This document shows positions 37,155-56,654 of a stretch of DNA of 64,000 bases, in pieces. Under the pieces are notes generated by a model. It saw only the letters and a program-made list of their open reading frames with translations, was not told the origin of the DNA and made no database searches. The DNA is taken from positions 10,113 through 74,112 of the forward strand of contig MFFQ01000026.1 of the NCBI GenBank assembly GCA_001780165.1, in the 5' to 3' direction. Made by a program: the position numbers and the translations under genes. The stretch comes from Candidatus Eisenbacteria bacterium RBG_16_71_46 (GTDB lineage Bacteria > Eisenbacteria > RBG-16-71-46). Numbering within the stretch: position 1 is the first letter of the stretch; each line of letters begins with the position of its first letter.

Positions 37155-37329
37155 TGCTGATCCTCCCGGAGGGCCTCGTCGGCCGTGGAGTTGAGGGTGA
37201 AGAAAGGCGCTGGACCATAGCAGCCCGGGAATGTCGCTGTAAAGCGCCGCCGGCGGGCCCCGCGGGCCCCCCGGCCCCCGCTGGGCCACGGCGTCGGCTA
37301 CCATGCCGGGGACGCGGGAGGATCGGGCC

Positions 37330-42162: not shown

Positions 42163-43560
42163 TTACGGGGCCTCCATCCGCCCCGACTCGCGCCGGCCCC
42201 CCAGGATGGTGAGCGCGCCCGCGAGCGCCACCAGTACGGCGCTCACCAGCAGCGCCGCCTCGGTCCCGAAGAAGCGCGTCACCCACGCCGCCACCGTCAC
42301 CGACGCCAGGAACATCAGGCGCATCAGGAAGTCGCGCGCGCTGAACACCCGCCCGCGCTGGCGCGGCTCGGTGCCCTCCTGGAGCAGGGTCTCGGAGAGC
42401 ACGAAGGCCGGCGCGGCGGAAAGGCCGATCAGGAACCCGGCGATCGCGAACACGGCGAATCGCGTGCTCACCGCGAAGACCACCAGGCCCGCGCCCACCA
42501 GCACCAGGCCGCCGCCGAGCAGCACCGGGCGGGGCAGCCGGCGCCCGTGCGTGTTCACCCACCAGGTGCCGAGCCCGGCGCCGAGGCCGAGCACGGTGAG
42601 CAACACGCCCAGCCGCTCCATGCCGGGGATCGCCGCCGCCCGCTGGATGTGCTGATTGCCGGCCACGTGCAGGAAGCCGCCGCCGATCCACACCGCGGAG
42701 AGTCCGATCAGCGCCACCCACACCGCCCGCCGTCGGCGGGTGAGGCGCCAGCCCTCGCGCACCTCCTGCAGGTAGCTTCCCGCCGAGATCTCGGGCGGTG
42801 GGGTCGTGACCGCGTGCGGCTGGTAGCGGACGAGCGCGAGCGCCACGACCGAGACCAGGTAGGTGCCGGAGTTGATCAGCAGCGCGGTGGGCCAGCCCCA
42901 GTGATCCACGATCCATCCACCGAGCAGCGCTCCAATCGCGGTGGAGGCGATGCCCGCCCCCGACAGCAGGGCGTTCGCGGTGAGCAGCTGCTTCGGGGCC
43001 ACGATCTCCGGGGTGATGGCGCTCTTCGCCGGGAGAAAGAAGACGTTGGCGGTGAACAGGGCGAAGACCAGCGCGTAGACCGGCACCGTGTGGTGGAGCA
43101 TCGCGTAGGCGAGCGGGATGAGCAGCACGATGACCGCGCGGATGAGATCGGAGACGATCAGCACCCGCTTGAGGTTCATCCGGTCCACCCAGGCGCCGGT
43201 GAACGGGGCGAACAGCAGCACCGGCGCGAGCATGACGTTGGCGAGCAACGACAACAGCCAGGGGGAGTTGGGATCCCGGAACTGGCGGGTGTGCTCGGCG
43301 AGCAACCCGACCAGGGCCAGGTAGGTGAGCCGCTCGCCGAGAATCGAGATGAGCTGCCCCCACCACAGCGCCGCGAAGTTGCGCTGGGTGAGGATGGGCG
43401 GCGGCTCTGGGGCCCCTGGGCCGTCCGGCGGCTCACCGTCGCCGGCGGTCGCTCCGGCGCTCGTCGCGGTCGAACGACTCGGGCGTTTCGACCGTGTGAG
43501 TCCGTGCACGCGACGCCTCTCCGCTCGATGCCCGCCGGGGTGCGGCGCGCCCGCACCCAT
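42163..43560 (-). CDS. MFS transporter.
   Basis: Twelve to fourteen predicted TM helices, with RNFAALWWGQLIS at the N-terminus. The N-terminal ~60 aa are low-complexity, so the true start may be internal. Confidence 0.7.
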   Translation of the reverse strand: MGAGAPHPGGHRAERRRVHGLTRSKRPSRSTATSAGATAGDGEPPDGPGAPEPPPILTQRNFAALWWGQLISILGERLTYLALVGLLAEHTRQFRDPNSPWLLSLLANVMLAPVLLFAPFTGAWVDRMNLKRVLIVSDLIRAVIVLLIPLAYAMLHHTVPVYALVFALFTANVFFLPAKSAITPEIVAPKQLLTANALLSGAGIASTAIGALLGGWIVDHWGWPTALLINSGTYLVSVVALALVRYQPHAVTTPPPEISAGSYLQEVREGWRLTRRRRAVWVALIGLSAVWIGGGFLHVAGNQHIQRAAAIPGMERLGVLLTVLGLGAGLGTWWVNTHGRRLPRPVLLGGGLVLVGAGLVVFAVSTRFAVFAIAGFLIGLSAAPAFVLSETLLQEGTEPRQRGRVFSARDFLMRLMFLASVTVAAWVTRFFGTEAALLVSAVLVALAGALTILGGRRESGRMEAP

Positions 43561-43645
43561 CGCCCGAAACGTGCCCCCCGCTCCCGCGGGCGAGAAGCGC
43601 TGCGCGTGCGGCCGCCGGATCGCGTCCCGCCCTGACCGCCCGAAG

Positions 43646-44452
43646 CTACGACGCGCCGCGGCCGCGGCGCAACCGCCGGCGTGGGGCGCCGGGCCCCGGG
43701 CGCGCCCGCCGCTCGGCCTGGTCCAGAGCGCGCGCGATCGCCACGGTGCGGAACGCCGCGGTGGCGGTCGAGGCCAGGGCGATGAAGGCCACCGCCAGTA
43801 CCAGCAAGCTGCCCGCGGCCCAGTGGAGGGCGGTGACCGCCACCGGATCGAGCAGCGACGCCAGCGCGAGCAGCACCAGGCGTTCGGCGCGCTGCATCAG
43901 CCCGCCGCGAAAGCTCACCCCCAGGCCCTCGCCGCGGGCGCGCGTGTAGCTGACCAGCAGCGAGCCGCCCAGGGCCAGGGCCACCGCGAGGATCCTCAGC
44001 GGCGACCCGGCGTAGAACATGGCCATGCCGGCGAAGGCGAAGGCCTCGGCGAATCGATCGAGCGTGGAATCCAGAAACGCGCCCGCGGGCGAGATCATGC
44101 CGCGCGCGCGCGCGATGCGGCCGTCGAAGACGTCGGCCGCGCCGCCGAGCAGCACCAGCCAGCCGCCCGCCGCCGGGGCGCCCTGAGCGTAGGCCACCCC
44201 GGCCGCCGCACCGAGGCCCACGCCCGCGAGATTGAAGACCAGCGGGGACACGCGGGCGCGCACCAGCGCCCGCTCGAGCGGCGCGATGACCCACATCAGC
44301 CAGTCGCGCACCCAGTGGCCGAGCAGCACGGTGGTGGGGCGGGCCGCCACCTCGGGGTCGCGGGGCCGTCCGCGCGAGACCAGCGCGTAGAGCGGCATGG
44401 TGAGCAGCAGGGCGGCCGCCGCGGCCAGAGCGAAGGCGTCGAGCGGGCTCAT
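43646..44452 (-). CDS. CDP-alcohol phosphatidyltransferase family protein.
   Basis: Catalytic motif DVFDGRIARARGMISPAGAFLDSTLDRFAE (D-G-x2-A-R-x8-G-x3-D-x3-D). Six TM helices. Length 268 aa. Confidence 0.8.
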   Translation of the reverse strand: MSPLDAFALAAAAALLLTMPLYALVSRGRPRDPEVAARPTTVLLGHWVRDWLMWVIAPLERALVRARVSPLVFNLAGVGLGAAAGVAYAQGAPAAGGWLVLLGGAADVFDGRIARARGMISPAGAFLDSTLDRFAEAFAFAGMAMFYAGSPLRILAVALALGGSLLVSYTRARGEGLGVSFRGGLMQRAERLVLLALASLLDPVAVTALHWAAGSLLVLAVAFIALASTATAAFRTVAIARALDQAERRARPGPGAPRRRLRRGRGAS

Positions 44453-46233
44453 CGGCCCCGCCCGGACCGGCGTCCGCGCAGGACGCGGATCGCCTTGGCC
44501 CACAGGAACACCAGCGGCCAGCGGCGCTCGCGACCGGTGAGCTCGATGGTCACGCCGGCACGTCGCTCGACCTTGTGCACCACGTAATCGAGCCAGCCGT
44601 CGTAGAGCGCCACGTACTTGCCCCAGCGCAGTGTCGCCCGCGCCTTGCTGGCGGCGAGGAAGCCGCGTGACCGCAGCCGAGCGAGCCGGCCCGGCGGACG
44701 CGGATCCCGGTACGCCGCGCCGTCGCGCGCGACCCGGCCGCGGGCCGCGAGGTGCTCGAGCAGGGCGGCGTACATCGGCGACAGGGTCTCGCGCTGGGCC
44801 GCGATCAGCGCGTCGAGGCGCTCCGCGCCCTCCGGGCGGATCTCGGCGGCGTAGGAAACCCGCAGGAGCGCCGTCCAGTAGGATTCGGCCGCGAAGCTCG
44901 AGGGGAGGTGGGCGCGGCCCCAGTCGAAGGTCGCCGCCCGTGCCGCGACCAGCGCGTCGACGACCGTCGCGCGCGCGGCATCGTCGCGGGCCCAGGCGAG
45001 TTGGACCTGCTGGAACAGGCGCGCGCGCGTGAAGTTGTCCTTCGCCCGCGGCGAGCAGGCGCGCCTGAGGTCGGCGAGGCTCAGGACCGCGCACTTGGCC
45101 TCCTCAGGCGGGCTCCCGGCCGAGACCGCGATCACGTTCGGCGGCAGCATCCGGTTGAGCAGGGCCGCTCCCGCCGGGGCGAGCCGCAGCCGCCCGGTCG
45201 CCGCCAGCGCCCGGTAGCCCTCGGCGTAGCGCTCCAGGATCACGAAATAGTCGCGAGCGCTATCCGCGGTCACGCCCGATCCCTGGGCGTGGGAGCCGTA
45301 GTGGAGGAGGGCGAGCGTGCCCGGTCCGAAGGCGCGGGCCAGGCCGCCGGCGATCCGCGCCGCGGCCGGGTCCGGCGGATGCTCCAGATCGCGCGCGAGG
45401 GCCGCGCGCAGGGCGGGATCAGCAGGCGGCATCGGCATGCCGCGAGGTGGCGGGGGGGCGGCGCGCATCCGCCCCAGGGCTTCGACCATGCGCGCGCGCA
45501 GCTCGCGAACGAAGCCGTCGTGAGCCGCGGGGTCGGCAGGGGCGGTGAACGGACCCAGCACCACCGCGCGGGCGGATGTCCCCGCGAGCCGGCGCGCGAC
45601 GTCGCCCAGGGTCCGCAGCCGCCACCAGCCGTCCACCACGACGGCATAGACCGGGCGGCCCGCGACGCGGGGGAGGATGATCCGCAGGCCCGAGGTCATG
45701 AAGGGCAGCATCTCACCATTGCGTGAGCGATGTCCTTCGGGAAAGATCAGCAGGGATTGCTCGCCTCGGGCGACCTCGTCGGCCGCGGCCGCCAGGGTTT
45801 CCCGCTCCTTTTCGGTGACCCGGCCGCCCTGGGCGACGAACGGGCAGCGGGCGAGGTGCATGATGTAGGAGATCCCCGGGATCCCCCGCGCATAGCTTGC
45901 GCGCGTCGGAATGAGCGGGTAGGGTCCCGGCCCGAGCAGGAAGGCCAGCGGCACGTCGAACAGCGACTGGTGATTCATCAGCACGAGACAGCTCTCCCCG
46001 GGGAGGGCGCCCTCGACCTCCAGCCGCAGGCCGGCCAGCCGCCGGGCCGGCGCCAGGACCGCGCGGGCCTGGAGTCGAAGCCACGCCCGCATCAACGCCC
46101 GGCGGCTGGCCGGGCGCAAGGCGACCAGCGGCCCGATGACCAGGCGTTGGATGGGCGCCATGATGAACAGGACGTAGGTGGAGTAGACTGCGAGAAATAG
46201 GAGGCTACGCCCTGCTCGGCTCAGTCGCGTCAC
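44449..46233 (-). CDS. Fusion protein: N-terminal lysophospholipid acyltransferase (PlsC/AGPAT-like) plus C-terminal nucleotidyltransferase-fold domain (Tam41/Mmp37-like).
   Basis: LPLAT motifs NHQSLFDVP (HX4D) and FPEGHRS lie in the N-terminal ~300 aa. The C-terminal ~330 aa carry an NTase-like G-S-x10-DxARD pattern (LLHYGSHAQGSGVTADSARDYFVILE). The start is ambiguous: GTG at 46233, ATG at 46161, or ATG at 46302. One TM helix lies upstream of ATG 46161. Confidence 0.6.
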   Translation of the reverse strand: MTRLSRAGRSLLFLAVYSTYVLFIMAPIQRLVIGPLVALRPASRRALMRAWLRLQARAVLAPARRLAGLRLEVEGALPGESCLVLMNHQSLFDVPLAFLLGPGPYPLIPTRASYARGIPGISYIMHLARCPFVAQGGRVTEKERETLAAAADEVARGEQSLLIFPEGHRSRNGEMLPFMTSGLRIILPRVAGRPVYAVVVDGWWRLRTLGDVARRLAGTSARAVVLGPFTAPADPAAHDGFVRELRARMVEALGRMRAAPPPPRGMPMPPADPALRAALARDLEHPPDPAAARIAGGLARAFGPGTLALLHYGSHAQGSGVTADSARDYFVILERYAEGYRALAATGRLRLAPAGAALLNRMLPPNVIAVSAGSPPEEAKCAVLSLADLRRACSPRAKDNFTRARLFQQVQLAWARDDAARATVVDALVAARAATFDWGRAHLPSSFAAESYWTALLRVSYAAEIRPEGAERLDALIAAQRETLSPMYAALLEHLAARGRVARDGAAYRDPRPPGRLARLRSRGFLAASKARATLRWGKYVALYDGWLDYVVHKVERRAGVTIELTGRERRWPLVFLWAKAIRVLRGRRSGRGR

Positions 46234-46300
46234 GAGGGACCGAGGCTGCGAGCCGGGGACCGCGGAGTCGGTGGGTGGGTCGTCCAAGCGGAGGGCACCC

Positions 46301-47575
46301 ATGGCAGCTCGGATGGACGTGAGAATCAAGGAAGAATTCTCCGATTACGACTACAGTAGCTTCTATTACTCGTCAAGCGACGACGTCTTCGCGATCCTCG
46401 ATCCCTACACCCGCTGGTACGACGAGGCGCAGCTCCGCGGCTACCACCTCTACGCCCAGCCGATGTCCACGCGCCCGCGCACGCGCATCGACCTCGAGGA
46501 CAAGCTCGATCGGAAGCGCGTCAATCTGCTCAACCTGTCGTCGTACAATTACCTGGGATTGTCCTACCGCGCCGAGGTGCTGGACGCCGCACGCCGCGCC
46601 CTAGACCAGTACGGACTCGGCGCCTCGGGCTCGCCGGTGCTCAGCGGCACCATGGACGTCCACCTCGAGCTCGAGCGCGAGCTGGCGGCCTTCAAGCGCA
46701 AGCCGGCGGCGATGCTGTTCCCCACCGGCTACAGCACCAATGTCGGCCTGATCCAGGGCCTGATGCGCCCCGGAGACCTCATCGTCGCCGACCAGAACTC
46801 CCACGCCAGCATCGTGGACGGCGCCATCCTGTCCAAGGCCGAGGTGCGCTTCTTCAAGCACAACCTCCCCGAGGAGGTCGAGCGCAAGCTGCGGGGCGCC
46901 ACGGGCAAGAAGCTGGTGATCGTCGAGGGCGTCTACTCCATGGACGGCGACGTCTGCCGCCTGCCCGAGATCGTCGAGATCGCGCGACGCCACGGCGCCC
47001 GCGTGATGATCGACGAGGCCCACTCGAGCTTCATCTACGGCGAGAGCGGCCGCGGGGTGGCCGAGCACTTCGGGCTCGAGGACGAGATCGACATCCACGT
47101 CGGCACCCTGTCCAAGGCCCTCGGCGGCCAGGGCGGTTTCGTCGCCGGCTCCGAGAGCCTCTACAAGTACCTGCAGGGCTTCGCCCGCGCGCGGCTGTTC
47201 TCCTGCGCGCTGTCGCCGGTGGTCGCCGCGGGCGTGCTGGAGGCGCTGCGCATCGCGGCGCGCGAGCCCGAGCTGCGGGCCCGGTTGTGGGACAACGTCG
47301 CCTATATCCGCAGCCGGCTCCGCGAGGAGGGCATCGACACCGGAGAGTCGACCTCGCAGGTGATCCCGGTGCTGGTGCGCAACGACCGCCGGATCTTCGA
47401 GATCGCCCGCCGGCTCCAGGATGCCGGCCTCTACCTGCAGCCGATCGTCTACCCGGCCGTGGCCAAGCACCGCTCGCGGTTCCGCATCTCGGTCTCGGCG
47501 GCGCACACCCGCGAGCAGCTCGACGAAGGGGTGGGGATCCTCGCCCGCGTCCTGCGCGAGGAGGGCGTGCGATGA
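46301..47575 (+). CDS. Alpha-oxoamine synthase family PLP-dependent acyltransferase (serine palmitoyltransferase/BioF/KBL-like).
   Basis: NLSSYNYLGL, a DEAHS motif and the PLP-lysine motif GTLSKALGG. A ~85-aa N-terminal extension resembles Spt more than KBL/BioF. ATG at 46313 is an alternative start. Confidence 0.8.
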   Translation: MAARMDVRIKEEFSDYDYSSFYYSSSDDVFAILDPYTRWYDEAQLRGYHLYAQPMSTRPRTRIDLEDKLDRKRVNLLNLSSYNYLGLSYRAEVLDAARRALDQYGLGASGSPVLSGTMDVHLELERELAAFKRKPAAMLFPTGYSTNVGLIQGLMRPGDLIVADQNSHASIVDGAILSKAEVRFFKHNLPEEVERKLRGATGKKLVIVEGVYSMDGDVCRLPEIVEIARRHGARVMIDEAHSSFIYGESGRGVAEHFGLEDEIDIHVGTLSKALGGQGGFVAGSESLYKYLQGFARARLFSCALSPVVAAGVLEALRIAAREPELRARLWDNVAYIRSRLREEGIDTGESTSQVIPVLVRNDRRIFEIARRLQDAGLYLQPIVYPAVAKHRSRFRISVSAAHTREQLDEGVGILARVLREEGVR

Positions 47576-48270
47576 AGGGGGCCGGTCCGTGCCGCTACCA
47601 GTATCGTGACGCGATCAACGGCTTCTTCGAGATCCCGACCGGGACCGCCCACGCCATCCTGCCCGCGGGCCTGCAGCCGGTCGAGCCGCATCACGGCTCG
47701 AGCGTGCTGGGTGTCACCGCGTTCGAGTTCCACGATTCCCCGGCCGGCGCCTATCGCGAGATCGCGCTCTCGATCTCGGTGGCGCCTCGCATCCTCGCGG
47801 GCGAATCCATGCCGCGCGCCGCGCTCTATCCGTTCCTGGTCGCCACCACCACGCGCGCCTCGCGCCAGCACGGCATCGAGGTCTGGCGCCTGCCGCACCA
47901 CGACCGCGACCTCGAGATCGCGTTCGACCGCGGCGAGCGCCGGGTGACCGTGACCGCCTCCGAGGGCCGACGCCGGCTCCTCGCGCTCACCGTCTTCGAC
48001 GCGCCTGAGGCCAACTGGCAGTCGGTCGAGCACCGCTACCAGACCTTTTCGCGTGACGACTCGGGGTCCTACCTCTCGGCGCTCGAGATGAGCGGTCCGT
48101 TCATGGAGCACGAAGAGGAGCGCGGCCGGCTCGAGCTGGAGCCCCGCGCCTTCTCCGCCGCATTCGACCTCGGCGACATCGACCCCGTTCCCTTCCGCGA
48201 GCAGTGGATGAAGGACGGGGTGGAGACCATCCATCCGCTCCAGCCGCTGGTGACGCACGCGGCACGATGA
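47572..48270 (+). CDS. Acetoacetate-decarboxylase-like (ADC-fold) protein.
   Basis: 232 aa. YQYRDAINGFFEIP and internal beta-rich segments suggest an ADC-like fold. ATGA overlap with the upstream gene. Confidence 0.4.
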   Translation: MKGAGPCRYQYRDAINGFFEIPTGTAHAILPAGLQPVEPHHGSSVLGVTAFEFHDSPAGAYREIALSISVAPRILAGESMPRAALYPFLVATTTRASRQHGIEVWRLPHHDRDLEIAFDRGERRVTVTASEGRRRLLALTVFDAPEANWQSVEHRYQTFSRDDSGSYLSALEMSGPFMEHEEERGRLELEPRAFSAAFDLGDIDPVPFREQWMKDGVETIHPLQPLVTHAAR

Positions 48271-49172
48271 CCCCGCGGGTGTGTGTGATCGTGAACCCCG
48301 CCGCGGGCCGGGGCCGCGGGGGACGCATGCTGCCCGCGGTGCGCGCCGCGTTTTCCGCGGTGGGTGTGGGCGACGTGCGGACCACGACCGGTCCGGGTGA
48401 GGAGGGGGATCTCGCGCGACGGGCGATCGCCGAAGGGTGCACGACCCTGGTCGGCGTCGGCGGCGACGGCACCTGGAGCAACGTGGCCGCGGCCATCCTG
48501 GCGGCGGGGGCCGATTGCCGCCTCGGCCTGCTCGCGGCCGGCACCGGCAACGACTTCGCCAAGACCGTGGGGGCGCCCGCGCGCGACCTGGCCGCCAGTG
48601 CCCGGCTCGCGGTCGAGGGGCCCGATCGGCACGTGGACGTCGGGACCGTCGAGGGGCACACCTTTCTCAACATCGCCGGTTTCGGCATCGACATCGCGGT
48701 GCTCGAGGAACTCGGCCGCGTGCGCTGGCTCCGCGGCGACGCGCTCTACCTCTTCGCGGCGTTGCGCCAACTCTTCGGCTATCCGGGCCTCGAGGTCGAG
48801 GTCGCCTCGCCGGCCGGCCGGCGGGGGGGTGGGCGCCACCTCATGCTGATCATCGCCAACGCCCGCCGCTTCGGCGGCGCCTTTCACATCGCCCCCGGAG
48901 CCGACCCCGCCGACGGCCTGCTCGACGCGGTGTCGGTGCTGGACGCGCCGCTGCTCGGGCGCTTCCGGCTGTTCGGCGCCGTCACCCGGGGTCGCCACGG
49001 CGCCCACCCGGAGGTGCGGACCGAGCAGGCCGCCCGCTTCACCTTGCGCTTTCCCGCGCCCCCCGCCTACGAGACCGACGGCGAGTACCGCCGCGCGCAA
49101 TCCCGCGAGCTGGAGGTGGCGTGCCTCCCGCGCGCGATCCGCATCGTCACCCCGGTGCCGGCGGTCATGTGA
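48267..49172 (+). CDS. Diacylglycerol-kinase catalytic-domain lipid kinase (YegS/BmrU/sphingosine-kinase-like).
   Basis: VIVNPAAGRGRG followed by GVGGDGT and GTGNDFA, which is the DAGK_cat signature. ATGA overlap with the upstream gene. Confidence 0.8.
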   Translation: MTPRVCVIVNPAAGRGRGGRMLPAVRAAFSAVGVGDVRTTTGPGEEGDLARRAIAEGCTTLVGVGGDGTWSNVAAAILAAGADCRLGLLAAGTGNDFAKTVGAPARDLAASARLAVEGPDRHVDVGTVEGHTFLNIAGFGIDIAVLEELGRVRWLRGDALYLFAALRQLFGYPGLEVEVASPAGRRGGGRHLMLIIANARRFGGAFHIAPGADPADGLLDAVSVLDAPLLGRFRLFGAVTRGRHGAHPEVRTEQAARFTLRFPAPPAYETDGEYRRAQSRELEVACLPRAIRIVTPVPAVM

Positions 49173-50413
49173 TGAAGGCGATACGCTTCGCCGCACCGCT
49201 CCCGACCTACCTGCTGACGCTCGCCGCGGGGCGGCTCTCGCCGCGGTTTTACGTCGGACCGCTCGCCTGCACCCGCTACGGCGAGGTGCCCGATCCCGCG
49301 CTGCCCGCGCCGGACTGGGTCAGCGTGCGCACGCGACTCGGCGGCATCTGCGGCAGCGACCTCGCGATCGTGACCCTCGGCGCCAGCCCGTCGACCTCTC
49401 CGTTCTCGTCGTTTCCGTTCGTGCTCGGGCACGAGAACGTCGGCGAGATCGTGGAGCTCGGTGCCGACGTCCGCGGCTTCGACCGCGGGCAGCGCGTGGT
49501 GGTGAACCCGCTGCTGAGCTGCGTGCCGCGAGCGATCCGCCCGGCGTGCGCGGCGTGCGCCGCCGGACGGCCGTCGCGCTGCGCGCACTTCACCGACGGT
49601 GCCCTCGCCCCCGGGATGTTCATCGGGACCACGCGCGGCGTGGGGGGAAGCTGGGGCGAGTGTTTCACCGCCCATGCGTCCCAGCTGGTCGCCGTACCGG
49701 AGAGCCTGTCGGACGAGGAGGCGGTGTTGGTCGAGCCGCTCGCCTGCGCGGTCCACGCGGTACGCTCGCACCTGCCGCCCGCGGGGGAGCGGGCGCTGGT
49801 CGTGGGGGCGGGCTCGATCGGTCTGCTCACCGTGGCCGCGCTGCGCGCGCTGGCGCCGGCCTCACCGGTCACGGTGCTGGCGCGGCACGTCTTCCAGGGC
49901 GAGCACGCCGAGCGGCTCGGGGCGGAGCGCGTCGTGATCGCCCGCGGGAGATACGTCGACGCGCTGGCCGAGGCCGCCGGGGCGCGGTTGCTGAGACCCG
50001 TCCTCGGCGAGCGCATCGCCGTGGGCGGATTCGACCGCACGGTCGTGTGCACCGGCGACTCGCGAGCGATGGAGGACGCGCTGCGGATGACGCGCGCCGG
50101 CGGGACGATCGTACTGCTCGGCAACGCGGTCCATCTGAAGGGCGTGGATTGGGCCCCCCTGTGGCTCAAGGAGCTGACGCTGGCCGGGAGCCTGGCCTAC
50201 GGCGCCCACGCGCATGGCGGGGCGACCCGGCACGCCTTCGAGGAGGCGGTGGCGCTGATCGCGGGTGGGCGCGCTGCGGTGCGCCCGCTGGTCACGCACA
50301 CCTTCCCGCTCGCCGACCACGCGCGCGCGCTCGCGACCGCGGCCGACCGCGGCGGCGCGCACAGCATCAAGGTGGCGTTCCGGCCGGGGCCGCCGGCCCC
50401 CGGGCCCGTCTGA
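49172..50413 (+). CDS. Zinc-dependent medium-chain dehydrogenase/reductase (threonine/sorbitol dehydrogenase-like).
   Basis: GICGSDL, the structural-zinc cysteine cluster CxxCxxGxxxxC and the Rossmann motif GAGSIGL. TGATG overlap with the lipid kinase gene. Confidence 0.8.
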   Translation: MKAIRFAAPLPTYLLTLAAGRLSPRFYVGPLACTRYGEVPDPALPAPDWVSVRTRLGGICGSDLAIVTLGASPSTSPFSSFPFVLGHENVGEIVELGADVRGFDRGQRVVVNPLLSCVPRAIRPACAACAAGRPSRCAHFTDGALAPGMFIGTTRGVGGSWGECFTAHASQLVAVPESLSDEEAVLVEPLACAVHAVRSHLPPAGERALVVGAGSIGLLTVAALRALAPASPVTVLARHVFQGEHAERLGAERVVIARGRYVDALAEAAGARLLRPVLGERIAVGGFDRTVVCTGDSRAMEDALRMTRAGGTIVLLGNAVHLKGVDWAPLWLKELTLAGSLAYGAHAHGGATRHAFEEAVALIAGGRAAVRPLVTHTFPLADHARALATAADRGGAHSIKVAFRPGPPAPGPV

Positions 50414-51768
50414 TGCCGGAGGTCGATCCTCCCCCGGGACCGTCCCCGGCCGAGCCCGGCCCGCCCGCGGCCTCGGCGGGCGAGGGGACCGCCGCGCCCG
50501 CTCCGCGCCGCGCTCGCCTTCATCTTCGTTACCGTGGTGCTCGAGGTCCTGGCGCTCGGCACCATCCTGCCGGTGCTGCCGCGGCTGGTCGAGACCTTCA
50601 GGGGCGGCGATACCGCGCGCGGCCGAGATCTACGGTCTGTTCGGCACCGTCTGGGCGATGATGCAATTCGTCTTCTCTCCCGTGATGGGCGCGCTCTCCG
50701 ATCGCTTCGGTCGCCGCAAGGTGATCCTGACCTCGAACTTCGGCCTCGGCTTCGACTACATCCTCATGGCTCTGGCACCCACGATCGGCTGGCTGTTCGT
50801 GGGCCGGGTCAGCTCCGGCATCAACGGGGCGAGCTTCACCACCGCGGGCGCCTACATCGCCGACGTCACGCCTCCGGAGAAGCGTGCCGCGGGGTTCGGC
50901 ATGATGGGCGCCGCGTGGGGGCTCGGCTTCGTGCTGGGGCCGGCGCTGGGCGGCGTGCTGGGCGGGATCGATCCGCGGCTGCCGTTCTTGGGCCGCGGCG
51001 GGGATGACGCTGCTCAACGCCCTCTACGGTCTGTTCGTGCTGCCGGAGTCGCTGTCGCGCGCGCGCCGCCGAGCATTCGCCTGGCGGCGCGCCAACCCGG
51101 TCGGATCGCTCAGGCTGCTGCGCTCGCATCCCGATCTGCTCGGAATCGCCTCGGTGAGCTTCCTCTACTACCTCGCCCATCACGTCCTGGCGAGCGTCTT
51201 CATCCTCTACGCCGGCTACCGCTACGGCTGGGGCGAGACCACGGTCGGCCTCACCCTCGCGGCGGTGGGCATCTGCAACATCGCGGTGCAGGGTGGCCTG
51301 GTGCATCCGGTGGTGGCGCGCTTCGGCGAGCGACGCACGCTGCTCGTGGCGCTGTTCTTCGGCGCCGTGGGGTTCGCGATCTACGGGCTGGCTCCGACCG
51401 GTACCGCGTTCTGGCTCGGGACTCCGGTTTTTTCCGTGATCAAGCTCTACTCGCCCGCGGCCCAGGGGCTGATGACGCAGCGCGTCGGCTCCTCGGAGCA
51501 GGGACAGCTCCAGGGCGCCAACAGCAGCATCATGGGGATCACCGGGCTGTTCGGACCGGTCCTGTTCACGCTCACGTTCGCCAGCTTCATCGGCGCGCGA
51601 CGGACTTGGCACCTGCCCGGCGCCCCGTTCCTGCTCGCGGCCGCGCTGATGCTCGTCGCCGTGACTCTGGCCTGGCGCGTCACGCGCCCGCGCCGCGAAC
51701 CGTCGTCTGCCGGGAGGCGTCAGGCCGCGGAGTTGAGCGCTCCGCGGCGCCCGAGCACTTCGCGGTAG
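50413..51768 (+). pseudogene. MFS transporter (TetA/TCR-like), interrupted by two to three +1 frameshifts.
   Basis: Canonical MFS segments lie in three different frames. TM1 LAFIFVTVVLEVLALGTILPVLPRLVETF runs from 50507. AEIYGLFGTVWAMMQF...GALSDRFGRRKV...PFLG runs 50610-51000. MTLLNALYGLFVLPES... runs from 51004 to the end. The shifts fall in G/C runs near 50600 and 51000. Confidence 0.6.
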
Positions 51769-52862
51769 ACCGCCTCGATCTGATCCGTCACGCGTGGCCA
51801 GGCGAAGTCGAGCGCCCGGGTCCGACCGCGCTGGCGCAGGGCCGCCTGCCGTGCGGGATCGTCCACCAGCTGGACCAAGGTCCGGGCCAGCGCCGAGACG
51901 TCCTCGGGCGGAAAGACCAGGCTGTCCTCGCCGGGTTTGACCACCGAGCGATAGCCGGGGATGTCGGAGGCCACCACCGCGCATCCGGCCGCCATCGCCT
52001 CGAGCAGCACGATGCCGAAGCTCTCGTTCCCCGTGGCGGGAGAGACGAAGATGTCTCCGGTGGTGTACCAGCGCGGCAGGTCGGTGCTGGGCACGTGACC
52101 GAGGAAGTGCACGTGCTGGCGGATCGCGGCGGGCACGGTGGACTCGAAGTGCGATCGCAGGTAGGAATCCCCGACGATCAGTAACCGGGCGCGATAGCGG
52201 GTGCGCTCCAGCACCTCCGGCATCGCGCCCAGCAGGTGCTGCAGGCCCTTGCGCGGGTCGAGCCGGCCCACGAACAGCAGGTTCACACGCTGCGGGTCGC
52301 GCCACTCCTCGAACGGCGGGGCGTCGGCCCGGAAACGCTCGACGTCGACCCCGTTGGGGATGACGTGGTAGGGCCCCGGGTAGTACCGCGCCGCCGAATC
52401 GCGGGCGGTGCGCGAGACCGCGATGCGCGCGTCGAGGCGTCCGACGGTGTCGCTCAGGTACGACTTGAAGGTGTCCTGCAGAAAGCTGCGCCCGGCAGTG
52501 GTGTGGAAGGTCCCGACCTGCGCGCAACGCGCGGCCCGCACCGCGAGGATGGGCAGGCTGGGGGCGTTCGGGCTGTGGGTATGCAGCAGGTCGAAATCGT
52601 GCTTCCGGATCAGACCGCGCAGTTGCCGGCTCAGGTTCAGGCCGAGCGTGAAGTCCACGAACGCGCGATTGAACGGTATCAGGATGTTGTAGCCCACACG
52701 CTCGACGCCCGCTGCGTGATTGGACTCCCCGTCGCGGAAGCGGCTGGTGATGATCGTCACCTCGTGGCCGCGCCGGCGCAGCTCGACGGCGGTCGAGTGC
52801 ACGTGCTCGGTGACGCCGCCGTAGCGCGGGTAGTAGGACTGGGTGACGATTCCGATCTTCAC
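51720..52862 (-). CDS. GT4 glycosyltransferase, PimA-like (phosphatidylinositol alpha-mannosyltransferase-like).
   Basis: VKIGIVTQSYYPRYGGVTEHV at the N-terminus and ESFGIVLLEAMAAGCAVVASD in the C-terminal half. Length 380 aa. It starts at GTG with GGAG upstream. The track ORF 51720..53801 is over-extended. Confidence 0.7.
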   Translation of the reverse strand: MKIGIVTQSYYPRYGGVTEHVHSTAVELRRRGHEVTIITSRFRDGESNHAAGVERVGYNILIPFNRAFVDFTLGLNLSRQLRGLIRKHDFDLLHTHSPNAPSLPILAVRAARCAQVGTFHTTAGRSFLQDTFKSYLSDTVGRLDARIAVSRTARDSAARYYPGPYHVIPNGVDVERFRADAPPFEEWRDPQRVNLLFVGRLDPRKGLQHLLGAMPEVLERTRYRARLLIVGDSYLRSHFESTVPAAIRQHVHFLGHVPSTDLPRWYTTGDIFVSPATGNESFGIVLLEAMAAGCAVVASDIPGYRSVVKPGEDSLVFPPEDVSALARTLVQLVDDPARQAALRQRGRTRALDFAWPRVTDQIEAVYREVLGRRGALNSAA

Positions 52863-53764
52863 GCTTCCAGGCTCCGGGCCGCCCCGGCCGGCGCCTCGTG
52901 CTCGCTCGGCATGCCCTCCCACAGCGGGCGGAATATGCACCACTGCCCCAGGTGCTCGCGGATGTGGCGTTCGACGGTCGTGGCCACGGCCGTGTGGAGG
53001 GCGTCGGTGCTGGCAAAGGTCTCGGGATCGAGCGGGGGCTCGAGCACGATGCGAAAGCGGCCGGGCTCGAGTCGCTCGCAGTAGCCGCAGATGATGAGCG
53101 CTCCGGTGCGCTGCGCCAGCACGCCGGGCCCGGCGGGGAAGGGGGTCTCGCGCCCAAACATCTCGACGCTCGTTCCGTGTCGATAGACGTCGCCGTCCAC
53201 CATCAGGGCGACGAAGTCGTTGTGCTCGAGCGCGCGCAGCAGCCGCCGGAAGCCATCTTCGGGCGCCACGGTGTGGATGGCGAGCTCGCTCTTCGTCTCG
53301 CGCACCGCGGGGGTGAGCCAGCGGCTGATCTGCACGCCCGCCACCGCGAAGATGGTGTAGCCCCAATGCGCGAGCATCACCGCCCCCAGCTCCCAGTTCC
53401 CGATGTGGGTCGAAGCCAGGATCACGCCGCGCCCACGCGCCGCCGCGCGCTCGAGGTGCTCGCGCCCCACCACCTCGATCGAGTCGAGCAGGTCCTCGCG
53501 GGTGAGGTGGGGGAGACGGAAGAACTCGAACAGCATGCAGTTGTAGCTGTACATCATCGAGCGGACCACCCGCAGGCGCTCGCGCCGGGTGGCGCGCGGC
53601 ATCGCCGCGGCGAGGTTGGTGAGCGCGGCGTGCCGGCGGGCGGGAAACGCCCGAAAATGCAGTTCGGTGAGCACGCGGGCGAGGAAGTACCCCACCCTCA
53701 AAGGTAGGCCAGCCATCAGGGATGTCAGCCAGCCGAAAACGAGTCGAGACATCCTGTTCCCCAC
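52859..53764 (-). CDS. LpxL/HtrB-family lipid acyltransferase (PatA-like).
   Basis: The LABLAT/LpxL-family acyltransferase HX4D motif STHIGNWELG. Length 301 aa. Its stop overlaps the pimA-like GTG start (GTGA). Confidence 0.65.
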   Translation of the reverse strand: MGNRMSRLVFGWLTSLMAGLPLRVGYFLARVLTELHFRAFPARRHAALTNLAAAMPRATRRERLRVVRSMMYSYNCMLFEFFRLPHLTREDLLDSIEVVGREHLERAAARGRGVILASTHIGNWELGAVMLAHWGYTIFAVAGVQISRWLTPAVRETKSELAIHTVAPEDGFRRLLRALEHNDFVALMVDGDVYRHGTSVEMFGRETPFPAGPGVLAQRTGALIICGYCERLEPGRFRIVLEPPLDPETFASTDALHTAVATTVERHIREHLGQWCIFRPLWEGMPSEHEAPAGAARSLEA

Positions 53765-54046
53765 TCTCCAAGAAACGGCGGGCAGGCCGATTGCGCCGCA
53801 ACGTACGGCTTGGCTGGAAACCCTGTCAAGCCCGGACCGGGGCGCATTCCCGGCGCACGCACGCCTGATCCGGCGTGCTGCCAGCGGGTTGCGGCGTTCG
53901 GTGATTGACCTGCCGCGGTCCGCCCACTACGATGCGCGCAAGCCTTGGATGGCGAAGCCGGGCCCGGGCCCGGCTTCGCGCGTCGTCGCGGCGCGGCGGC
54001 CGCCCGCGGCGATCGCCGTCGCGTGGTTTCGCCGGGAGGAACGCCG

Positions 54047-54463
54047 ATGTCCAGCCAAAAACTGGTGCGTTGCGAGTTGCGTCCCCGGGGAAAGAACGCG
54101 CCGGGCTCCCCGCGCTACATCCCGCTCGAGATCTTCGGTCTCTGGGAATACATGATGAGCACCAAACACGCCTTCGAGGTGCTCGACGCCCGGGCCTCGC
54201 TGTGGCTGGACATGGAAGACTCTCCGGAGGCGGCTTACAGCGCGGGCCAATACGAGCGGGTGACCGAGGTCACGGCGTTCGTCTATTCGGGCCGCGACGA
54301 GATGTTCACCCGGGCCTGCCGCTACTTCCCCTCGGAGCAGATCGACCACCTCAAGCCGATCTTCCTCTCCCACTACCAGGACAATGGTTCCAGGCTCCAG
54401 ACCCAAGTGCGCGAGCGCGTGGGGATCTGGCTCCACCGCGACTCCACCACGACCACGATCTGA
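54047..54463 (+). CDS. Hypothetical protein.
   Basis: 138-aa ORF with GGGAGGA 7 nt upstream of the ATG. No recognisable motif. About 410 nt of non-coding sequence with GC-rich hairpins follows it. Confidence 0.4.
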   Translation: MSSQKLVRCELRPRGKNAPGSPRYIPLEIFGLWEYMMSTKHAFEVLDARASLWLDMEDSPEAAYSAGQYERVTEVTAFVYSGRDEMFTRACRYFPSEQIDHLKPIFLSHYQDNGSRLQTQVRERVGIWLHRDSTTTTI

Positions 54464-54875
54464 ACACCCCGGTGGGGCCCAACCCCCGCCCGCATGCCCG
54501 CTTGCGCCGCCGGCCTCCCGGCCGGGAGCACCACGGCGAGCCGCCCCCCCGGGGGGCGTCGCCCGCGCCAGCCCTCCGGAATTCGCTGAAGGCCGTCTTT
54601 CTGCCCGCCGATACACCGCGCGAAGGATGGTGCCCGCGTGGCGTCGAGCGGGGGGGCCTGCGGCGCCCCCGCTTCGGAGCGCGACGCCGGGCGCTCGCAC
54701 AGGAGATGCGCGACCCCATCCGGTGCGTGAGGGCTCGATCGGGCCTCGTGCGTCAGGCATGGGTGCCGTCGAACGGTTCGATCCACCTTCGAAGTACCTT
54801 TGGAGAAAGGGCGGCAAGGGGCTCCATGGGAATCCGCTTCGTGACAGGGTGGGGTCGCACAGGGAGGAACACACC

Positions 54876-55970: not shown

Positions 55971-56062
55971 CGCTTATCGCGCGATTTGACCAAAGCTTGA
56001 AACCCGCGGCGGCGGTCATCGTTCCGGTTGACTTCGGAGGCGCGGGTTCCTACCTTCATCCC

Positions 56063-56518: not shown

Positions 56519-56647
56519 TCTCTGTCTGGAAAGGCCCGAATGGCTGCGTTGCGCGGTCGGCTCCTCGCTCCAACGTGGCCAGAAGGCCACGATTCCGCTC
56601 GTCGCTCGACCGCGACGCCTTGCCCTCGGGCGTTTCCAGACAGAGCC
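56518..56647. repeat. Palindromic repeat element, family A, copy 3.
   Basis: AGTCTCTGTCTGGAAAGGCCC...GGGCGTTTCCAGACAGAGCCT. It has the shared core and a shorter internal hairpin (CGTGGCCagaaGGCCACG). It lies between the secreted-protein stop codon and the trpA start. Confidence 0.85.
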
Positions 56648-56654
56648 TGATCGG

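Follow-up and report, generated by a model that had tools for sequence, protein, structure and literature searches.

A conserved gene cluster across soil-bacterial phyla with a candidate role in CDP-activated phosphosphingolipid synthesis

An alpha-oxoamine synthase (AOS), an acetoacetate-decarboxylase (ADC)-fold protein, a lipid kinase, an LPLAT acyltransferase, a Tam41-like nucleotidyltransferase and a CDP-alcohol phosphatidyltransferase are encoded together in a real conserved gene cluster across several soil-bacterial phyla. We propose, with about even confidence, that this conserved unit makes a phosphosphingolipid via a CDP-activated intermediate, mirroring the CDP-diacylglycerol pathway; its substrates and products, the order of kinase and acyltransferase, and the inositol head group are all what we infer. 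A sphingolipid is preferred over a glycerolipid because of a parallel with Caulobacter-type loci, the homology of the Tam41-like domain to a cpgC-position protein, and an SPT as the nearest solved relative of the AOS, together with the position of the AOS outside the KBL and BioF clades and the scores of four lipid enzymes under glycerolipid cut-offs.

Layout of the locus

The window, a stretch of 64,000 nucleotides from Candidatus Eisenbacteria bacterium RBG_16_71_46, was annotated by GC3 frame plot together with Pfam and NCBIfam (Table 1). Two divergent gene sets, each translationally coupled, occupy positions 43646-50413, with four genes on the plus strand and two on the minus strand. All six genes named in the original prediction are present at essentially the coordinates first given, as confirmed by the Pfam and NCBIfam calls and, independently, by a public contig (L083) that is 99.78% identical to window positions 45524-52244 and whose gene calls give 424, 232, 301 and 413 amino acids for the four plus-strand products. 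ATGA overlaps join the AOS and ADC genes, the ADC and kinase genes, and the fusion ORF and the CDP-alcohol transferase gene, while the kinase and MDR dehydrogenase genes meet in TGATG with a 1 nt overlap; four overlapping junctions among six coding sequences are consistent with translational coupling. The true start of the LPLAT::Tam41-like fusion ORF is probably the ATG at 46302.

Table 1. Features of the cluster and its flanks, with window coordinates.
Feature	Coordinates	Strand	Basis
MFS transporter	42163..43560	-	PF07690 MFS_1, 109 bits
CDP-alcohol phosphatidyltransferase (CDP-OH_P_transf)	43646..44452	-	PF01066, 38.9 bits
LPLAT::Tam41-like fusion ORF	44449-46329	-	N-terminal PF01553; C-terminal ~326 aa without Pfam match
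Tam41-like nucleotidyltransferase domain (C-terminal half of fusion ORF)	44452..45429	-	AF2/Foldseek, hhalign
LPLAT (PlsC-superfamily) acyltransferase domain (N-terminal half of fusion)	45430..46329	-	PF01553 Acyltransferase, 49.3 bits
Alpha-oxoamine synthase (AOS)	46301..47575	+	PF00155, 197 bits
Acetoacetate-decarboxylase (ADC)-fold protein	47572..48270	+	PF06314, 24.9 bits, under gathering score 29.8
DAGK_cat + YegS_C lipid kinase	48267..49172	+	PF00781, 87 bits; PF19279, 84 bits
Zn-dependent MDR dehydrogenase	49172..50413	+	ADH_N, 78 bits; ADH_zinc_N, 54 bits
PimA-like GT4 glycosyltransferase	51720..52862	-	Best PDB matches 4n9w, 2gej
PatA-like acyltransferase (Lip_A_acyltrans)	52859..53764	-	PF03279, 139 bits

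Conservation across phyla

Orthologous loci were defined by an AOS ortholog of at least 59% identity (n = 35). These orthologs, 59-85% identical, come from Eisenbacteria, Gemmatimonadota and Acidobacteriota, and the next relatives step down to 47% and then to about 40%; every carrier of the cluster that was found is a MAG. Conservation among relatives, put forward as a check on the original prediction, was observed. The ADC-fold gene is kept in 34 of the 35 loci (the exception is cut by a contig end) and the kinase gene in 32 (the other three are likewise truncated), and the divergent triad of LPLAT, Tam41-like and CDP-alcohol transferase genes is adjacent in 27, in members of all three phyla. 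The MDR gene adjoins the cluster in 15 loci, about half of the orthologous clusters. In one locus (L086), a single co-directional operon encodes all six functions, arranged AOS-ADC-kinase-LPLAT::Tam41-CDP-OH, and the linkage of the AOS to the LPLAT, Tam41 and CDP-alcohol transferase genes persists through rearrangements, this one included. A more divergent LPLAT::Tam41-like fusion (P0367) still adjoins an AOS. Such an arrangement is far beyond chance.

Proposed pathway

The AOS would first condense an amino acid, most likely L-serine, and a long-chain acyl thioester into a 3-keto long-chain base, whose keto group would be reduced by the MDR dehydrogenase where present; at this stage the lysine-less ADC-fold protein would act on or escort the AOS product. 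Phosphorylation of the C1 hydroxyl by the DAGK-type kinase would be followed by N-acylation of the base by the LPLAT enzyme to ceramide-1-phosphate, the sphingoid counterpart of the conversion of LPA to PA, after which the Tam41-like domain would use CTP to form CDP-ceramide. The PIP-synthase-like transferase would then place the ceramide-phosphate on an alcohol, probably myo-inositol phosphate. In Eisenbacteria, including the window, the head group would finally be glycosylated and acylated by PimA-like and PatA-like enzymes.

The alpha-oxoamine synthase and its plus-strand partners

The best PDB match of the AOS is Sphingobacterium SPT (307 bits, 39% identity), followed by the Thermus BioF/KBL enzyme (246 bits). 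The protein is about equally distant from SPT, KBL and BioF-type enzymes (37-43% identity) and falls under every NCBIfam equivalog cut-off, including all three for SPT. It conserves the PLP lysine (GTLSKALG), the histidine (NSHASIVDG) and the DEAHS motif, and is extended at its N-terminus by a conserved stretch of about 40 residues; in the alignment, a proline stands at what we take to be the position of the arginine in the GSR motif of SPT, KBL and ALAS. The phylogenetic placement suggested with the original prediction yielded, in a neighbor-joining tree, a separate clade with 100% bootstrap support outside the KBL and BioF clades; its position on the SPT side was less firm, with deep support of just 16-36% and the SPT cut-offs failed. 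We propose that this distinct clade comprises candidate Spt-like long-chain-base synthases, with the amino-acid and acyl substrates that we infer.

The MDR protein belongs to the Zn-dependent polyol/threonine-dehydrogenase subfamily. Its best NCBIfam matches are IolM (120 bits, cut-off 450) and Tdh (116 bits, cut-off 380), its nearest PDB matches are a ketose reductase and sorbitol dehydrogenase (90-95 bits), and it has an extra N-terminal segment in comparison to E. coli Tdh. It is a candidate 3-keto reductase for the long-chain base, as an accessory member of the cluster.

That the MDR shares a broad subfamily with Tdh, and that KBL and BioF models score the AOS at 286-362 bits, would be in keeping with unrelated lipid genes that happen to stand beside genes for threonine catabolism (Tdh-Kbl) or biotin synthesis (BioF). 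We consider this highly improbable: those scores are below the model cut-offs, as is the Tdh score, the AOS clade is apart from BioF and from the Kbl of E. coli and Bacillus in the tree, no bio genes lie nearby, and some half of the clusters lack the MDR gene whereas none is without the ADC and kinase genes unless a contig end cuts it. An operon of the Tdh-Kbl or BioF kind was rejected on the missed cut-offs, the mere 29% identity of the MDR to E. coli Tdh, and the linkage of the set across three phyla; the original view of a sphingoid-type lipid island is upheld on the same failed AOS cut-offs and linkage.

The AF2 model of the ADC-fold protein (pLDDT 92.6) has as its top 24 Foldseek matches only ADC, MppR, Sbi00515 or Swit_4259 (TM 0.55-0.69). 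Its gene always lies between those of the AOS and the kinase and is the most tightly linked AOS partner. Across 32 aligned sequences, many His, Glu, Arg and Tyr residues are invariant, while no invariant or near-invariant Lys was found. The protein may have a part in handling or processing what the AOS makes.

The fold of ADC is that of a beta-keto-acid decarboxylase. With the gene always following that of the AOS, and with the proline in the AOS GSR motif, this would suit a form of the pathway that keeps the CDP-activated sphingoid logic with different chemistry at one end: the AOS would condense glycine or alanine without decarboxylation, and the ADC-fold protein would decarboxylate the beta-keto acid, leading to a 1-deoxy-type amino-alcohol lipid. 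However, all characterised ADC family members known to us need a Schiff-base lysine, which is absent here, and a glycine- or alanine-derived base would leave the kinase and the CDP chemistry without a primary hydroxyl. Altered chemistry, whether of this kind or in the head group as discussed below, seems to us unlikely.

The kinase matches TIGR00147 at 132 bits, above the cut-off of 118.65, and in the PDB it comes nearest to DgkB (69 bits) and YegS (62-65 bits). It falls in the YegS/Rv2252/BmrU family and not in the CpgB clade, with marginal pairwise similarity to a Roseomonas kinase (E 1e-3). It is a candidate long-chain-base or ceramide 1-kinase.

The acyltransferase and Tam41-like domains

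The LPLAT domain contains the HX4D (NHQSLFD) and FPEGHRS motifs. It scores far under the PlsC cut-off (TIGR00530, 28 bits vs 103), and its sole PDB match is PlsC 5kym (33 bits). The classical activity of LPLAT enzymes is O-acylation, not N-acylation; here we propose a candidate N-acyltransferase producing ceramide-1-phosphate.

Pfam and PDB sequence searches with the Tam41-like domain of the window gave no match. Its AF2 model (pLDDT 90.5), however, has Tam41 for all of its top five Foldseek matches, with a Foldseek probability of 1.0, and family members P0367 (29 bits, gathering score 24) and P0362 (22.6 bits) match PF09139 Tam41_Mmp37. On these two grounds the domain is assigned as a candidate CTP:lipid-phosphate cytidylyltransferase, here a predicted CDP-ceramide synthase. 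About 50 residues are invariant over 40 aligned sequences with 53-63% identity to the window domain. The fusion described in the original prediction is indeed a single ORF in the window, but in the window alone: in 26 of 26 other comparable loci of the divergent set, LPLAT and Tam41-like are encoded by separate genes that abut or overlap. Independent LPLAT::Tam41-like fusions occur elsewhere (P0367, P0369 and P0376), as does a fusion of a Tam41-like domain with a CDP-alcohol transferase (P0398), and fusions of both kinds suggest consecutive steps.

Comparison with the Caulobacter genes and with glycerolipid synthesis

CpgB is a ceramide kinase in Caulobacter, ceramide phosphate accumulates in cpgC mutants, and a kinase, cpgC and a CDP-alcohol transferase beside spt have been studied experimentally only in Caulobacter-type loci (PMC10331486, PMC9393093); an NDP-activated ceramide was proposed for CC_1161 (PMC11324152). 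The kinase, Tam41-like domain and CDP-alcohol transferase of the window mirror cpgB/cpgC/cpgA. The Tam41-like family profile aligned by hhalign (99.4%, E 5e-21) with a Roseomonas protein identified as cpgC by its synteny with the gene order published for Caulobacter rather than by the CCNA_01219 sequence, while the relationship of the window transferase to the Roseomonas cpgA-position protein is remote only. In contrast to the Caulobacter ceramide set, the cluster has no ACP, acyl-ACP synthetase, GNAT-type bCerS or CerR. The original prediction of an undescribed pathway distinct from that of Caulobacter is correct for the ceramide module, which fits no described set, but not for the head-group module, which parallels cpgABC.

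The acyltransferase and CDP-alcohol transferase were also put forward as possible suppliers of a glycerolipid head group. Such a PI/PIM pathway beside an unrelated AOS operon would have the LPLAT as LPA acyltransferase, the kinase as DAG kinase and the Tam41-like domain as CDP-diacylglycerol synthase, with the transferase making a phosphatidylinositol phosphate that PimA- and PatA-like enzymes decorate; the AOS, ADC-fold and MDR proteins would yield an amino-ketone or amino-alcohol of their own, or else a sphingoid base linked in through another enzyme. The known Tam41 substrate is phosphatidate (according to the PDB match descriptions), the closest relatives of the transferase are PIP synthases, PimA-like and PatA-like genes are adjacent, PlsC alone matches the LPLAT in the PDB, and the kinase passes the cut-off of a family that includes Rv2252, an M. 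tuberculosis DAG kinase with a link to PIM synthesis. Nevertheless, the kinase gene is coupled to and invariant with the AOS and ADC genes while the PimA/PatA-like genes are confined to Eisenbacteria, the AOS keeps its link to the other three genes through rearrangements and in the L086 operon, and the Tam41-like domain is homologous to a cpgC-position protein, whose place in the Caulobacter pathway is downstream of ceramide phosphate. Moreover, the LPLAT, kinase, Tam41-like and CDP-alcohol transferase enzymes all score far under the NCBIfam cut-offs of glycerolipid equivalogs. We regard the glycerolipid pathway as a rather doubtful alternative; the acyltransferase, the nucleotidyltransferase and the CDP-alcohol transferase more likely have the sphingoid lipid itself as substrate, in its acylation, CDP activation and head-group transfer.

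The head group and flanking genes

The CDP-alcohol transferase has an intact DxxDGxxAR-x8-G-x3-D-x3-D motif. Its best NCBIfam models (AIPS 124, PIPS 103 and BT_1523-type PIPS 100 bits) are all below cut-off, and PIP synthases fill the first five places among its PDB matches, with DIPPS next. It is of the PIP-synthase/archaetidylinositol-phosphate-synthase type and is proposed to transfer a CDP-activated lipid phosphate to inositol phosphate. An inositol head group would follow from these matches and from the adjoining PimA-like GT4 and PatA-like genes. The GT4 protein matches PimA (4n9w and 2gej) over its full length at 185 bits, with PimB' next at 84 bits, and its gene adjoins the cluster in L002, L004, L005, L015 and L017. 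The PatA-like gene lies upstream and overlaps it; its product best matches the PIM acyltransferase model PRK07920 (135 bits, cut-off 209). Five Eisenbacteria loci have the two together, with 71-77% identity, and this extension was seen in Eisenbacteria only.

The second form of altered chemistry would replace inositol phosphate with either glycerol phosphate or phosphoglycerate, on the pattern of Caulobacter CPG. The transferase scores under every PIPS and AIPS cut-off, no myo-inositol-phosphate synthase (MIPS) gene was found in the scanned parts of the window, and PimA/PatA-like genes are absent outside Eisenbacteria, all of which would fit; yet every significant match of the transferase is to an enzyme that uses inositol phosphate, in line with the preferred inositol-phosphate acceptor.

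A peripheral member of the cluster, the MFS gene, follows the CDP-alcohol transferase gene at a distance of 85 nt and keeps this position in L002-L005 and L017, loci of the Eisenbacteria type (63-70% identity); its product possibly exports or flips the lipid.

Gene organization of the cluster

Because the G+C content of the window is about 73%, raw lists of open reading frames are crowded with spurious frames; genes were called by combining a GC3 frame plot with Pfam and NCBIfam searches. The four plus-strand genes of the cluster encode an α-oxoamine synthase (AOS), a protein weakly matching the acetoacetate decarboxylase (ADC) family, a lipid kinase, and a Zn-dependent dehydrogenase (MDR), and are called as 424, 232, 301, and 413 amino acids on L083, an independent public contig that is 99.78% identical. 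ATGA overlaps are found at the AOS/ADC and ADC/kinase junctions and, on the minus strand, between the fusion gene and the CDP-alcohol phosphatidyltransferase gene, while the kinase/MDR junction is TGATG. One CCATGG palindrome (46299-46304) holds both the AOS start codon (46301-46303, plus strand) and the first in-frame ATG of the fusion's PlsC-superfamily acyltransferase (LPLAT) domain (46302-46300, minus strand), so that the two operons stand head to head with zero intergenic space and no intergenic promoter region. The genes of the cluster had been described correctly in the original prediction, including the guess, now backed by a predicted Tam41 fold, that the fusion partner of the acyltransferase is a nucleotidyltransferase (NTase).

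Features of the window, with positions in nucleotides
Feature	Position	Strand	Content or basis
Polysaccharide glycosyltransferase cluster	1-17 kb		GT2, GT4, flippase, asparagine synthase, YfhO-like, and GNAT genes
dcw cell-division/cell-wall cluster	~18.6-26.5 kb (to 26562), probably continuing		mraW, PBP with PASTA domain, murE, murF, mraY
RecG	37303-39498
MFS transporter	42163-43560	-	frame plot, Pfam/NCBIfam
CDP-alcohol phosphatidyltransferase	43646-44452	-	frame plot, Pfam/NCBIfam
LPLAT::Tam41-like fusion	44449-46329	-	single ORF: LPLAT acyltransferase domain and ~326 aa without Pfam match
AOS	46301-47575	+	frame plot, Pfam/NCBIfam
Extra N-terminal segment of AOS	46301-46420	+	residues 1-40
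ADC-fold protein	47572-48270	+	weak ADC-family match: PF06314, 24.9 bits against a gathering score of 29.8
Lipid kinase (DAGK_cat and YegS_C)	48267-49172	+	frame plot, Pfam/NCBIfam
Zn-dependent MDR dehydrogenase	49172-50413	+	frame plot, Pfam/NCBIfam
TetA-like MFS efflux gene	50413-51768	+	between MDR and GT4
PimA-like GT4	51720-52862	-
PatA-like acyltransferase	52859-53764	-
ORF	53945-54463	+	no Pfam match; between PatA-like gene and trpA
ORF	54384-55970	+	sub-threshold Arf/small-GTPase match; between PatA-like gene and trpA
ORF	55997-56518	+	no Pfam match; between PatA-like gene and trpA
trpA	56343-57452

Conservation of the gene set

AOS homologs of 70-85% identity are plentiful both in metagenomes and among Candidatus Eisenbacteria and Gemmatimonadota MAGs. 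When one genome per species was scanned, 35 loci had an AOS of at least 59% identity; they belong to Eisenbacteria, Gemmatimonadaceae, Longimicrobiales, Vicinamibacterales, and Solibacteraceae. Below 59%, identity falls sharply to 47% and then to about 40%. When synteny was scored by tblastn, the ADC-fold gene was found beside the AOS gene at 34 of the 35 loci and the kinase gene at 32, the exceptions all being cut by a contig end, and the divergent set of LPLAT, Tam41-like, and CDP-alcohol transferase genes at 27. In the Longimicrobiales-type loci and L018, the neighbors of the AOS-ADC-kinase triad, among them TetR regulators, an ABC transporter, and sugar-nucleotide enzymes, offer no alternative partners. 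Conservation in relatives, put forward earlier as a check on the proposed island, is thus seen wherever the contig suffices for the triad, and the set is linked across Eisenbacteria, Gemmatimonadota, and Acidobacteriota. The cluster is very probably one conserved lipid-biosynthesis unit. As the RecG, Zn-ribbon, and MFS genes also lie upstream of the cluster in the related locus L002, it belongs to the core chromosome of an Eisenbacteria-like organism.

Identity of the α-oxoamine synthase

The AOS scores under every NCBIfam equivalog cut-off. Its NCBIfam scores are 379 bits for a BioF/Kbl-related subfamily, 362 for BioF, 356 for serine palmitoyltransferase (SPT) of the CFB type, and 342 for KBL, and all three SPT equivalogs fall short of their cut-offs (SerpalmtaseCFB, 356 against 640; BetaP, 328 against 500; AlphaP, 258 against 670). 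The nearest solved relative is the Sphingobacterium multivorum SPT (PDB 3a2b/8guh), at 307 bits and 39% identity over 375 residues, followed by Thermus BioF/KBL at 246 bits and 37.5% identity; in tblastn searches against plasmids and in PDB comparisons the enzyme is about 40% identical to SPT, KBL, and BioF types alike. The motifs holding the PLP-binding lysine (GTLSKALG), the histidine (NSHASIVDG), and the aspartate (DEAHS) align with 3a2b. In a neighbor-joining tree labeled with E. coli Kbl and BioF, Bacillus Kbl, Thermus BioF/KBL, S. multivorum SPT, and Roseomonas Spt, bootstrap support for the window AOS clade is 100%. The clade groups apart from KBL and BioF, on the side of SPT together with Roseomonas Spt, Bacteroidetes SPT, and Myxococcales, through deep nodes with bootstrap values of only 16-36%. 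Placement among the known clades, as the original prediction proposed, therefore gives a clade of its own that misses all equivalog cut-offs and is weakly placed on the SPT side. A CqsA-type autoinducer synthase was also considered and rejected (205 bits against a cut-off of 428).

Two further features characterize this clade. An extra N-terminal segment of about 40 amino acids is conserved (KEEFSDYDYSSFYY); it is rich in tyrosine, serine, and acidic residues (MAARMDVRIKEEFSDYDYSSFYYSSSDDVF...) and lies ahead of the part of the protein that can be aligned to known AOS enzymes, and its KEEFSDYD stretch is sufficiently conserved among orthologs to serve as a scan pattern. In contrast to the SPT of the S. 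multivorum or Bacteroides BT_0870 type, the window AOS is always accompanied by an ADC-fold partner.

The main alternative in the original prediction was a threonine-degrading Tdh-Kbl pair, and a BioF operon is the related possibility. The MDR does belong to the polyol/threonine-dehydrogenase subfamily and is 29% identical to E. coli Tdh. It nonetheless scores far below the Tdh cut-offs (PRK05396, 116 bits against 380; TIGR00692, 108 against 458). The AOS misses the cut-offs for KBL (PRK06939, 342 against 460; TIGR01822, 286 against 493), and in the tree it lies apart from the KBL enzymes of E. coli, Bacillus, and Thermus. The MDR gene, moreover, lies beside the AOS gene at only 15 of the 35 loci, against 34 for the ADC-fold gene and 32 for the kinase gene. 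As to BioF, the AOS misses the cut-off (TIGR00858, 362 against 426) and stands apart from E. coli BioF in the tree; Pfam searches of the surrounding genes found no bioA, bioB, or bioD. Both operon types are effectively excluded.

The ADC-fold protein

The AlphaFold2 model of the ADC-like protein (pLDDT 92.6) finds only members of the ADC superfamily among its top 24 Foldseek matches (TM up to 0.69), and judging from this model the protein truly has the ADC β-cone fold. Among 32 sequences, the family has no invariant or 90%-conserved lysine, which makes the Schiff-base chemistry of ADC, MppR, and Sbi00515 impossible and rules out a canonical Schiff-base decarboxylase role. Many invariant histidine, glutamate, arginine, and tyrosine residues nevertheless suggest that it is an enzyme.

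The Tam41-like domain and its fusions

The C-terminal half of the fusion protein was identified only through structure prediction. It has no Pfam match at E values up to 10, PF09139 (Tam41_Mmp37) included, and phmmer and profile searches of the PDB returned at best a weak NTase (E 0.04) and a cupin (E 0.6). Its model (pLDDT 90.5) shows the Tam41 fold, an NTase plus a winged helix. Among relatives, PF09139 matches the family protein P0367 at 29 bits (gathering score 24), P0362 at 22.6, and the fusion protein of locus L086 at 14. Sequence identity to the mitochondrial and bacterial Tam41 (Mmp37) CDP-diacylglycerol synthases (PDB 6ig2, 6ig4, 7ecd) is only 11-12%, and, unlike Tam41, the window domain is joined to an LPLAT by fusion or coupling, with a CDP-alcohol transferase coming after it. 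Since the domain is linked to an AOS, its proposed substrate is ceramide-1-phosphate rather than phosphatidate.

Among orthologous loci the fusion is particular to the window, as LPLAT and the Tam41-like protein are encoded by separate abutting or overlapping genes in 26 of 26 comparable loci; it is not a general feature of the family. A Tam41-like profile search of 1.84 billion representatives gave 1134 family members, and Pfam searches of the long ones revealed independent LPLAT::Tam41-like fusions (P0367, P0369, P0376) and a fusion of the Tam41-like domain to the CDP-alcohol transferase (P0398). A divergent AOS still adjoins P0367, and P0369 lies within a single co-directional operon, L086, that encodes the AOS, ADC-fold protein, kinase, LPLAT::Tam41 fusion, and CDP-alcohol transferase. 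This persistence of linkage through rearrangement argues that the six genes work together.

Other long members of the family carry different domains. Of two metagenomic proteins, P0441 and P0492, one has an N-terminal MobA/IspD-like NTP_transf_3 domain and the other a preceding YegS_C (lipid kinase) fragment. Proteins of 756 and 1152 amino acids are Tam41-like::P450 fusions (P0383, P0388), and at locus L087 (714-3562) a CDP-alcohol transferase comes directly after the fusion, with a 240-amino acid protein showing a faint GNAT match (E 0.085) ahead of it. This arrangement may represent a variant pathway with lipid hydroxylation.

Comparison with the Caulobacter and Roseomonas loci

The Caulobacter crescentus operon CCNA_01217-01220 makes ceramide phosphoglycerate, spt (CCNA_01220) being followed by cpgC, in whose product no conserved domains were described, cpgB, a lipid kinase, and cpgA, a PgsA-like CDP-alcohol transferase; ceramide phosphate accumulates in cpgC mutants (PMC9393093). 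CpgB has been proven biochemically to be a ceramide kinase (PMC10331486). For CC_1161, Olea-Ozuna et al. pointed out an InterPro signature resembling that of CDP-DAG synthases and proposed that ceramide is NDP-activated (PMC11324152). The mechanism of CpgC was still termed unidentified in 2025 (PMC12275187).

In tblastn searches against plasmids, the Tam41-like domain matched only Roseomonas replicons, and a complete alphaproteobacterial sphingolipid locus, L088, was found on the 358-kb plasmid p1 of Roseomonas mucosa (NZ_CP147881.1, 272314-290922). The products of its genes include an NTP transferase, a sterol-desaturase-family protein, LptF/G paralogs, a metallophosphoesterase, a CDP-alcohol transferase, a DAG-kinase-family protein, the hypothetical protein in the cpgC position, GT39, Spt, ACP, and an SDR. 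This hypothetical protein, between the DAG-kinase-family gene and spt/ACP, aligns with the Tam41-like family profile over 275 columns (hhalign 99.4%, E 5e-21); its assignment as CpgC is by synteny with the published CCNA_01217-01220 order rather than by alignment to CCNA_01219. Through this synteny-assigned homolog, the cluster appears to contain a CpgC-family protein.

Like the Caulobacter-type locus, the cluster places an AOS beside a DAGK-superfamily kinase, a protein without a Pfam domain, and a CDP-alcohol transferase. The kinase and transferase, however, are only remotely similar to their Roseomonas counterparts (pairwise E 1e-3 and 2e-3): the window kinase is of the YegS/Rv2252 type, above the YegS/Rv2252/BmrU family cut-off, and the window transferase of the type of phosphatidylinositol-phosphate (PIPS) or archaetidylinositol-phosphate (AIPS) synthases. 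The AOS is 40% identical to Roseomonas Spt and forms a separate clade, and the host phyla differ. Missing from the cluster are an ACP, an acyl-ACP synthetase, a GNAT-type bCerS, CerR, CpgD, LptF/G paralogs, and a metallophosphoesterase, and Pfam searches of every gene from 42163 to 53764 found no ACP, GNAT-type ceramide synthase, or NDUFA9-like reductase, all of which are present in the Roseomonas locus; an LPLAT, an ADC-fold protein, and an MDR are found instead. The view that this is not the Caulobacter gene set consequently stands for ACP, bCerS, and CerR, and gives way for the head group, whose logic, by analogy, appears to be that of the cpg genes, with a CpgC-family homolog included.

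A proposed CDP-ceramide pathway

On the most economical reading, the cluster would run the CDP-diacylglycerol pathway in a sphingoid version. The AOS would produce a 3-keto long-chain base, which the MDR, where present, would reduce; the kinase would phosphorylate the long-chain base to the 1-phosphate. Sphinganine-1-phosphate is a structural analogue of lysophosphatidate, and the PlsC-type LPLAT would N-acylate the base 1-phosphate. The Tam41/CpgC-family enzyme would then form CDP-ceramide, and the PIPS-like transferase would transfer the ceramide-phosphate to inositol phosphate. Gene order in L086 is colinear with these steps, and the fusions connect neighboring ones. CDP-ceramide is a concrete and testable prediction, given the CDP-lipid-synthase fold of the Tam41-like domain and its fusions to the acyltransferase of the preceding step and the transferase of the following one. 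We consider it an even question whether the cluster follows this CDP-ceramide/inositol-phosphoceramide mechanism specifically, a scheme in which we infer every substrate.

Inositol and PIM-like components

The CDP-alcohol transferase carries the full DxxDGxxAR-x8-G-x3-D-x3-D motif, as DVFDGRIAR-x8-GAFLDSTLD. Its best matches in NCBIfam and the PDB are all phosphatidylinositol-phosphate or archaetidylinositol-phosphate synthases, with 5d92, 6h53, and 6wm5 (PIPS) at the top of the PDB list, followed by 4mnd (DIPPS). It scores under the equivalog cut-offs for AIPS (124 bits against 180), PIPS (103 against 170), and the BT_1523 type (100 against 350), and no myo-inositol-phosphate synthase (MIPS) gene was found in the scanned parts of the window (up to 26.5 kb and from 35 to 57.5 kb). 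We consider improbable a pathway sharing the CDP logic, but with another head group or a base not derived from serine. As to the other head group, the missed cut-offs speak for it and the uniformly inositol-type matches against it.

The window also contains a GT4 gene whose product matches PimA at 185 bits in the PDB (next match, 84) and an acyltransferase gene for which the PIM acyltransferase model is the best NCBIfam match. The two overlap, in the order of the mycobacterial PIM operon, and they lie beside the AOS at 5 of the 35 loci, all of the Eisenbacteria type. The pair is suggestive of PIM-like glycolipids in a diderm candidate phylum, and in Eisenbacteria the PimA-like and PatA-like enzymes might decorate the product of the pathway to yield a mannosylated and acylated "sphingo-PIM".

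These genes could also belong to a plain glycerolipid PI/PIM pathway that merely lies beside an unrelated AOS operon. The window resembles the actinobacterial PI/PIM pathway (PgsA1, PimA, PatA) in its PIP-synthase-type transferase, PimA-like GT4, and PatA-like acyltransferase. The coupling of the transferase to a Tam41-like enzyme and an AOS, and the occurrence of the cluster in diderm soil phyla, set it apart from that pathway and from the Bacteroides inositol-lipid system. We think the plain glycerolipid explanation unlikely. In Bacteroides, inositol phosphoceramide is made from phosphatidylinositol by an AUR1-like enzyme (PMC9246714). Unlike the Bacteroides inositol-lipid cluster (BT_1522-1526), the window cluster has no AUR1-like IPC synthase; no PgpA-like phosphatase was seen near it.

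Novelty and implications

To our knowledge, the only types of sphingolipid synthesis worked out in bacteria are those of the Bacteroidota and of the Alphaproteobacteria/Myxococcota, and the cluster shares neither ceramide synthase nor reductase with them. The long-chain-base/ceramide part, with its new AOS clade, ADC-fold partner, LPLAT, and MDR, differs from the known sets, as does the PIPS-type transferase. No description of the cluster, of bacterial CDP-ceramide, or of sphingolipids in Gemmatimonadota, Acidobacteriota, or Eisenbacteria was found in searchable full text. The suggestion of an undescribed pathway is supported for the ceramide part, and the head-group logic appears to be that of Caulobacter cpg.

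We propose only tentatively that Gemmatimonadota, Acidobacteriota, and Eisenbacteria make sphingolipids by a step-for-step copy of the CDP-diacylglycerol route, extended to the "sphingo-PIM" in Eisenbacteria. The cluster is kept, at 59-85% AOS identity, in three poorly cultured and environmentally abundant phyla. If the proposal is true, it would establish CDP-ceramide as a real metabolite and give Caulobacter CpgC its long-sought activity, and the N-acylating LPLAT would stand as an independent third type of ceramide synthase in bacteria. Its confirmation would provide lipid biomarkers for these phyla and a compact six-gene cassette for producing phosphosphingolipids in a heterologous host.

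Additional observations

The TetA-like gene is broken up between two or more reading frames, with profile positions 38-161 encoded at 50598-51020 and positions 169-381 at 51004-51768. Contig L083 differs from the window by a 2-nt indel inside it, at window position 50614, and it is missing at the corresponding position in loci L002, L015, and L017. The split gene is a pseudogene or an assembly error.

At L039 (10001-11848), a locus in an Acidobacteriaceae MAG, a KBL/Thermus-like AOS, 36% identical to that of the window, directly adjoins a convergent CDP-alcohol transferase gene whose product is 34% identical to the window's. This pair may be another AOS-linked lipid head-group system.
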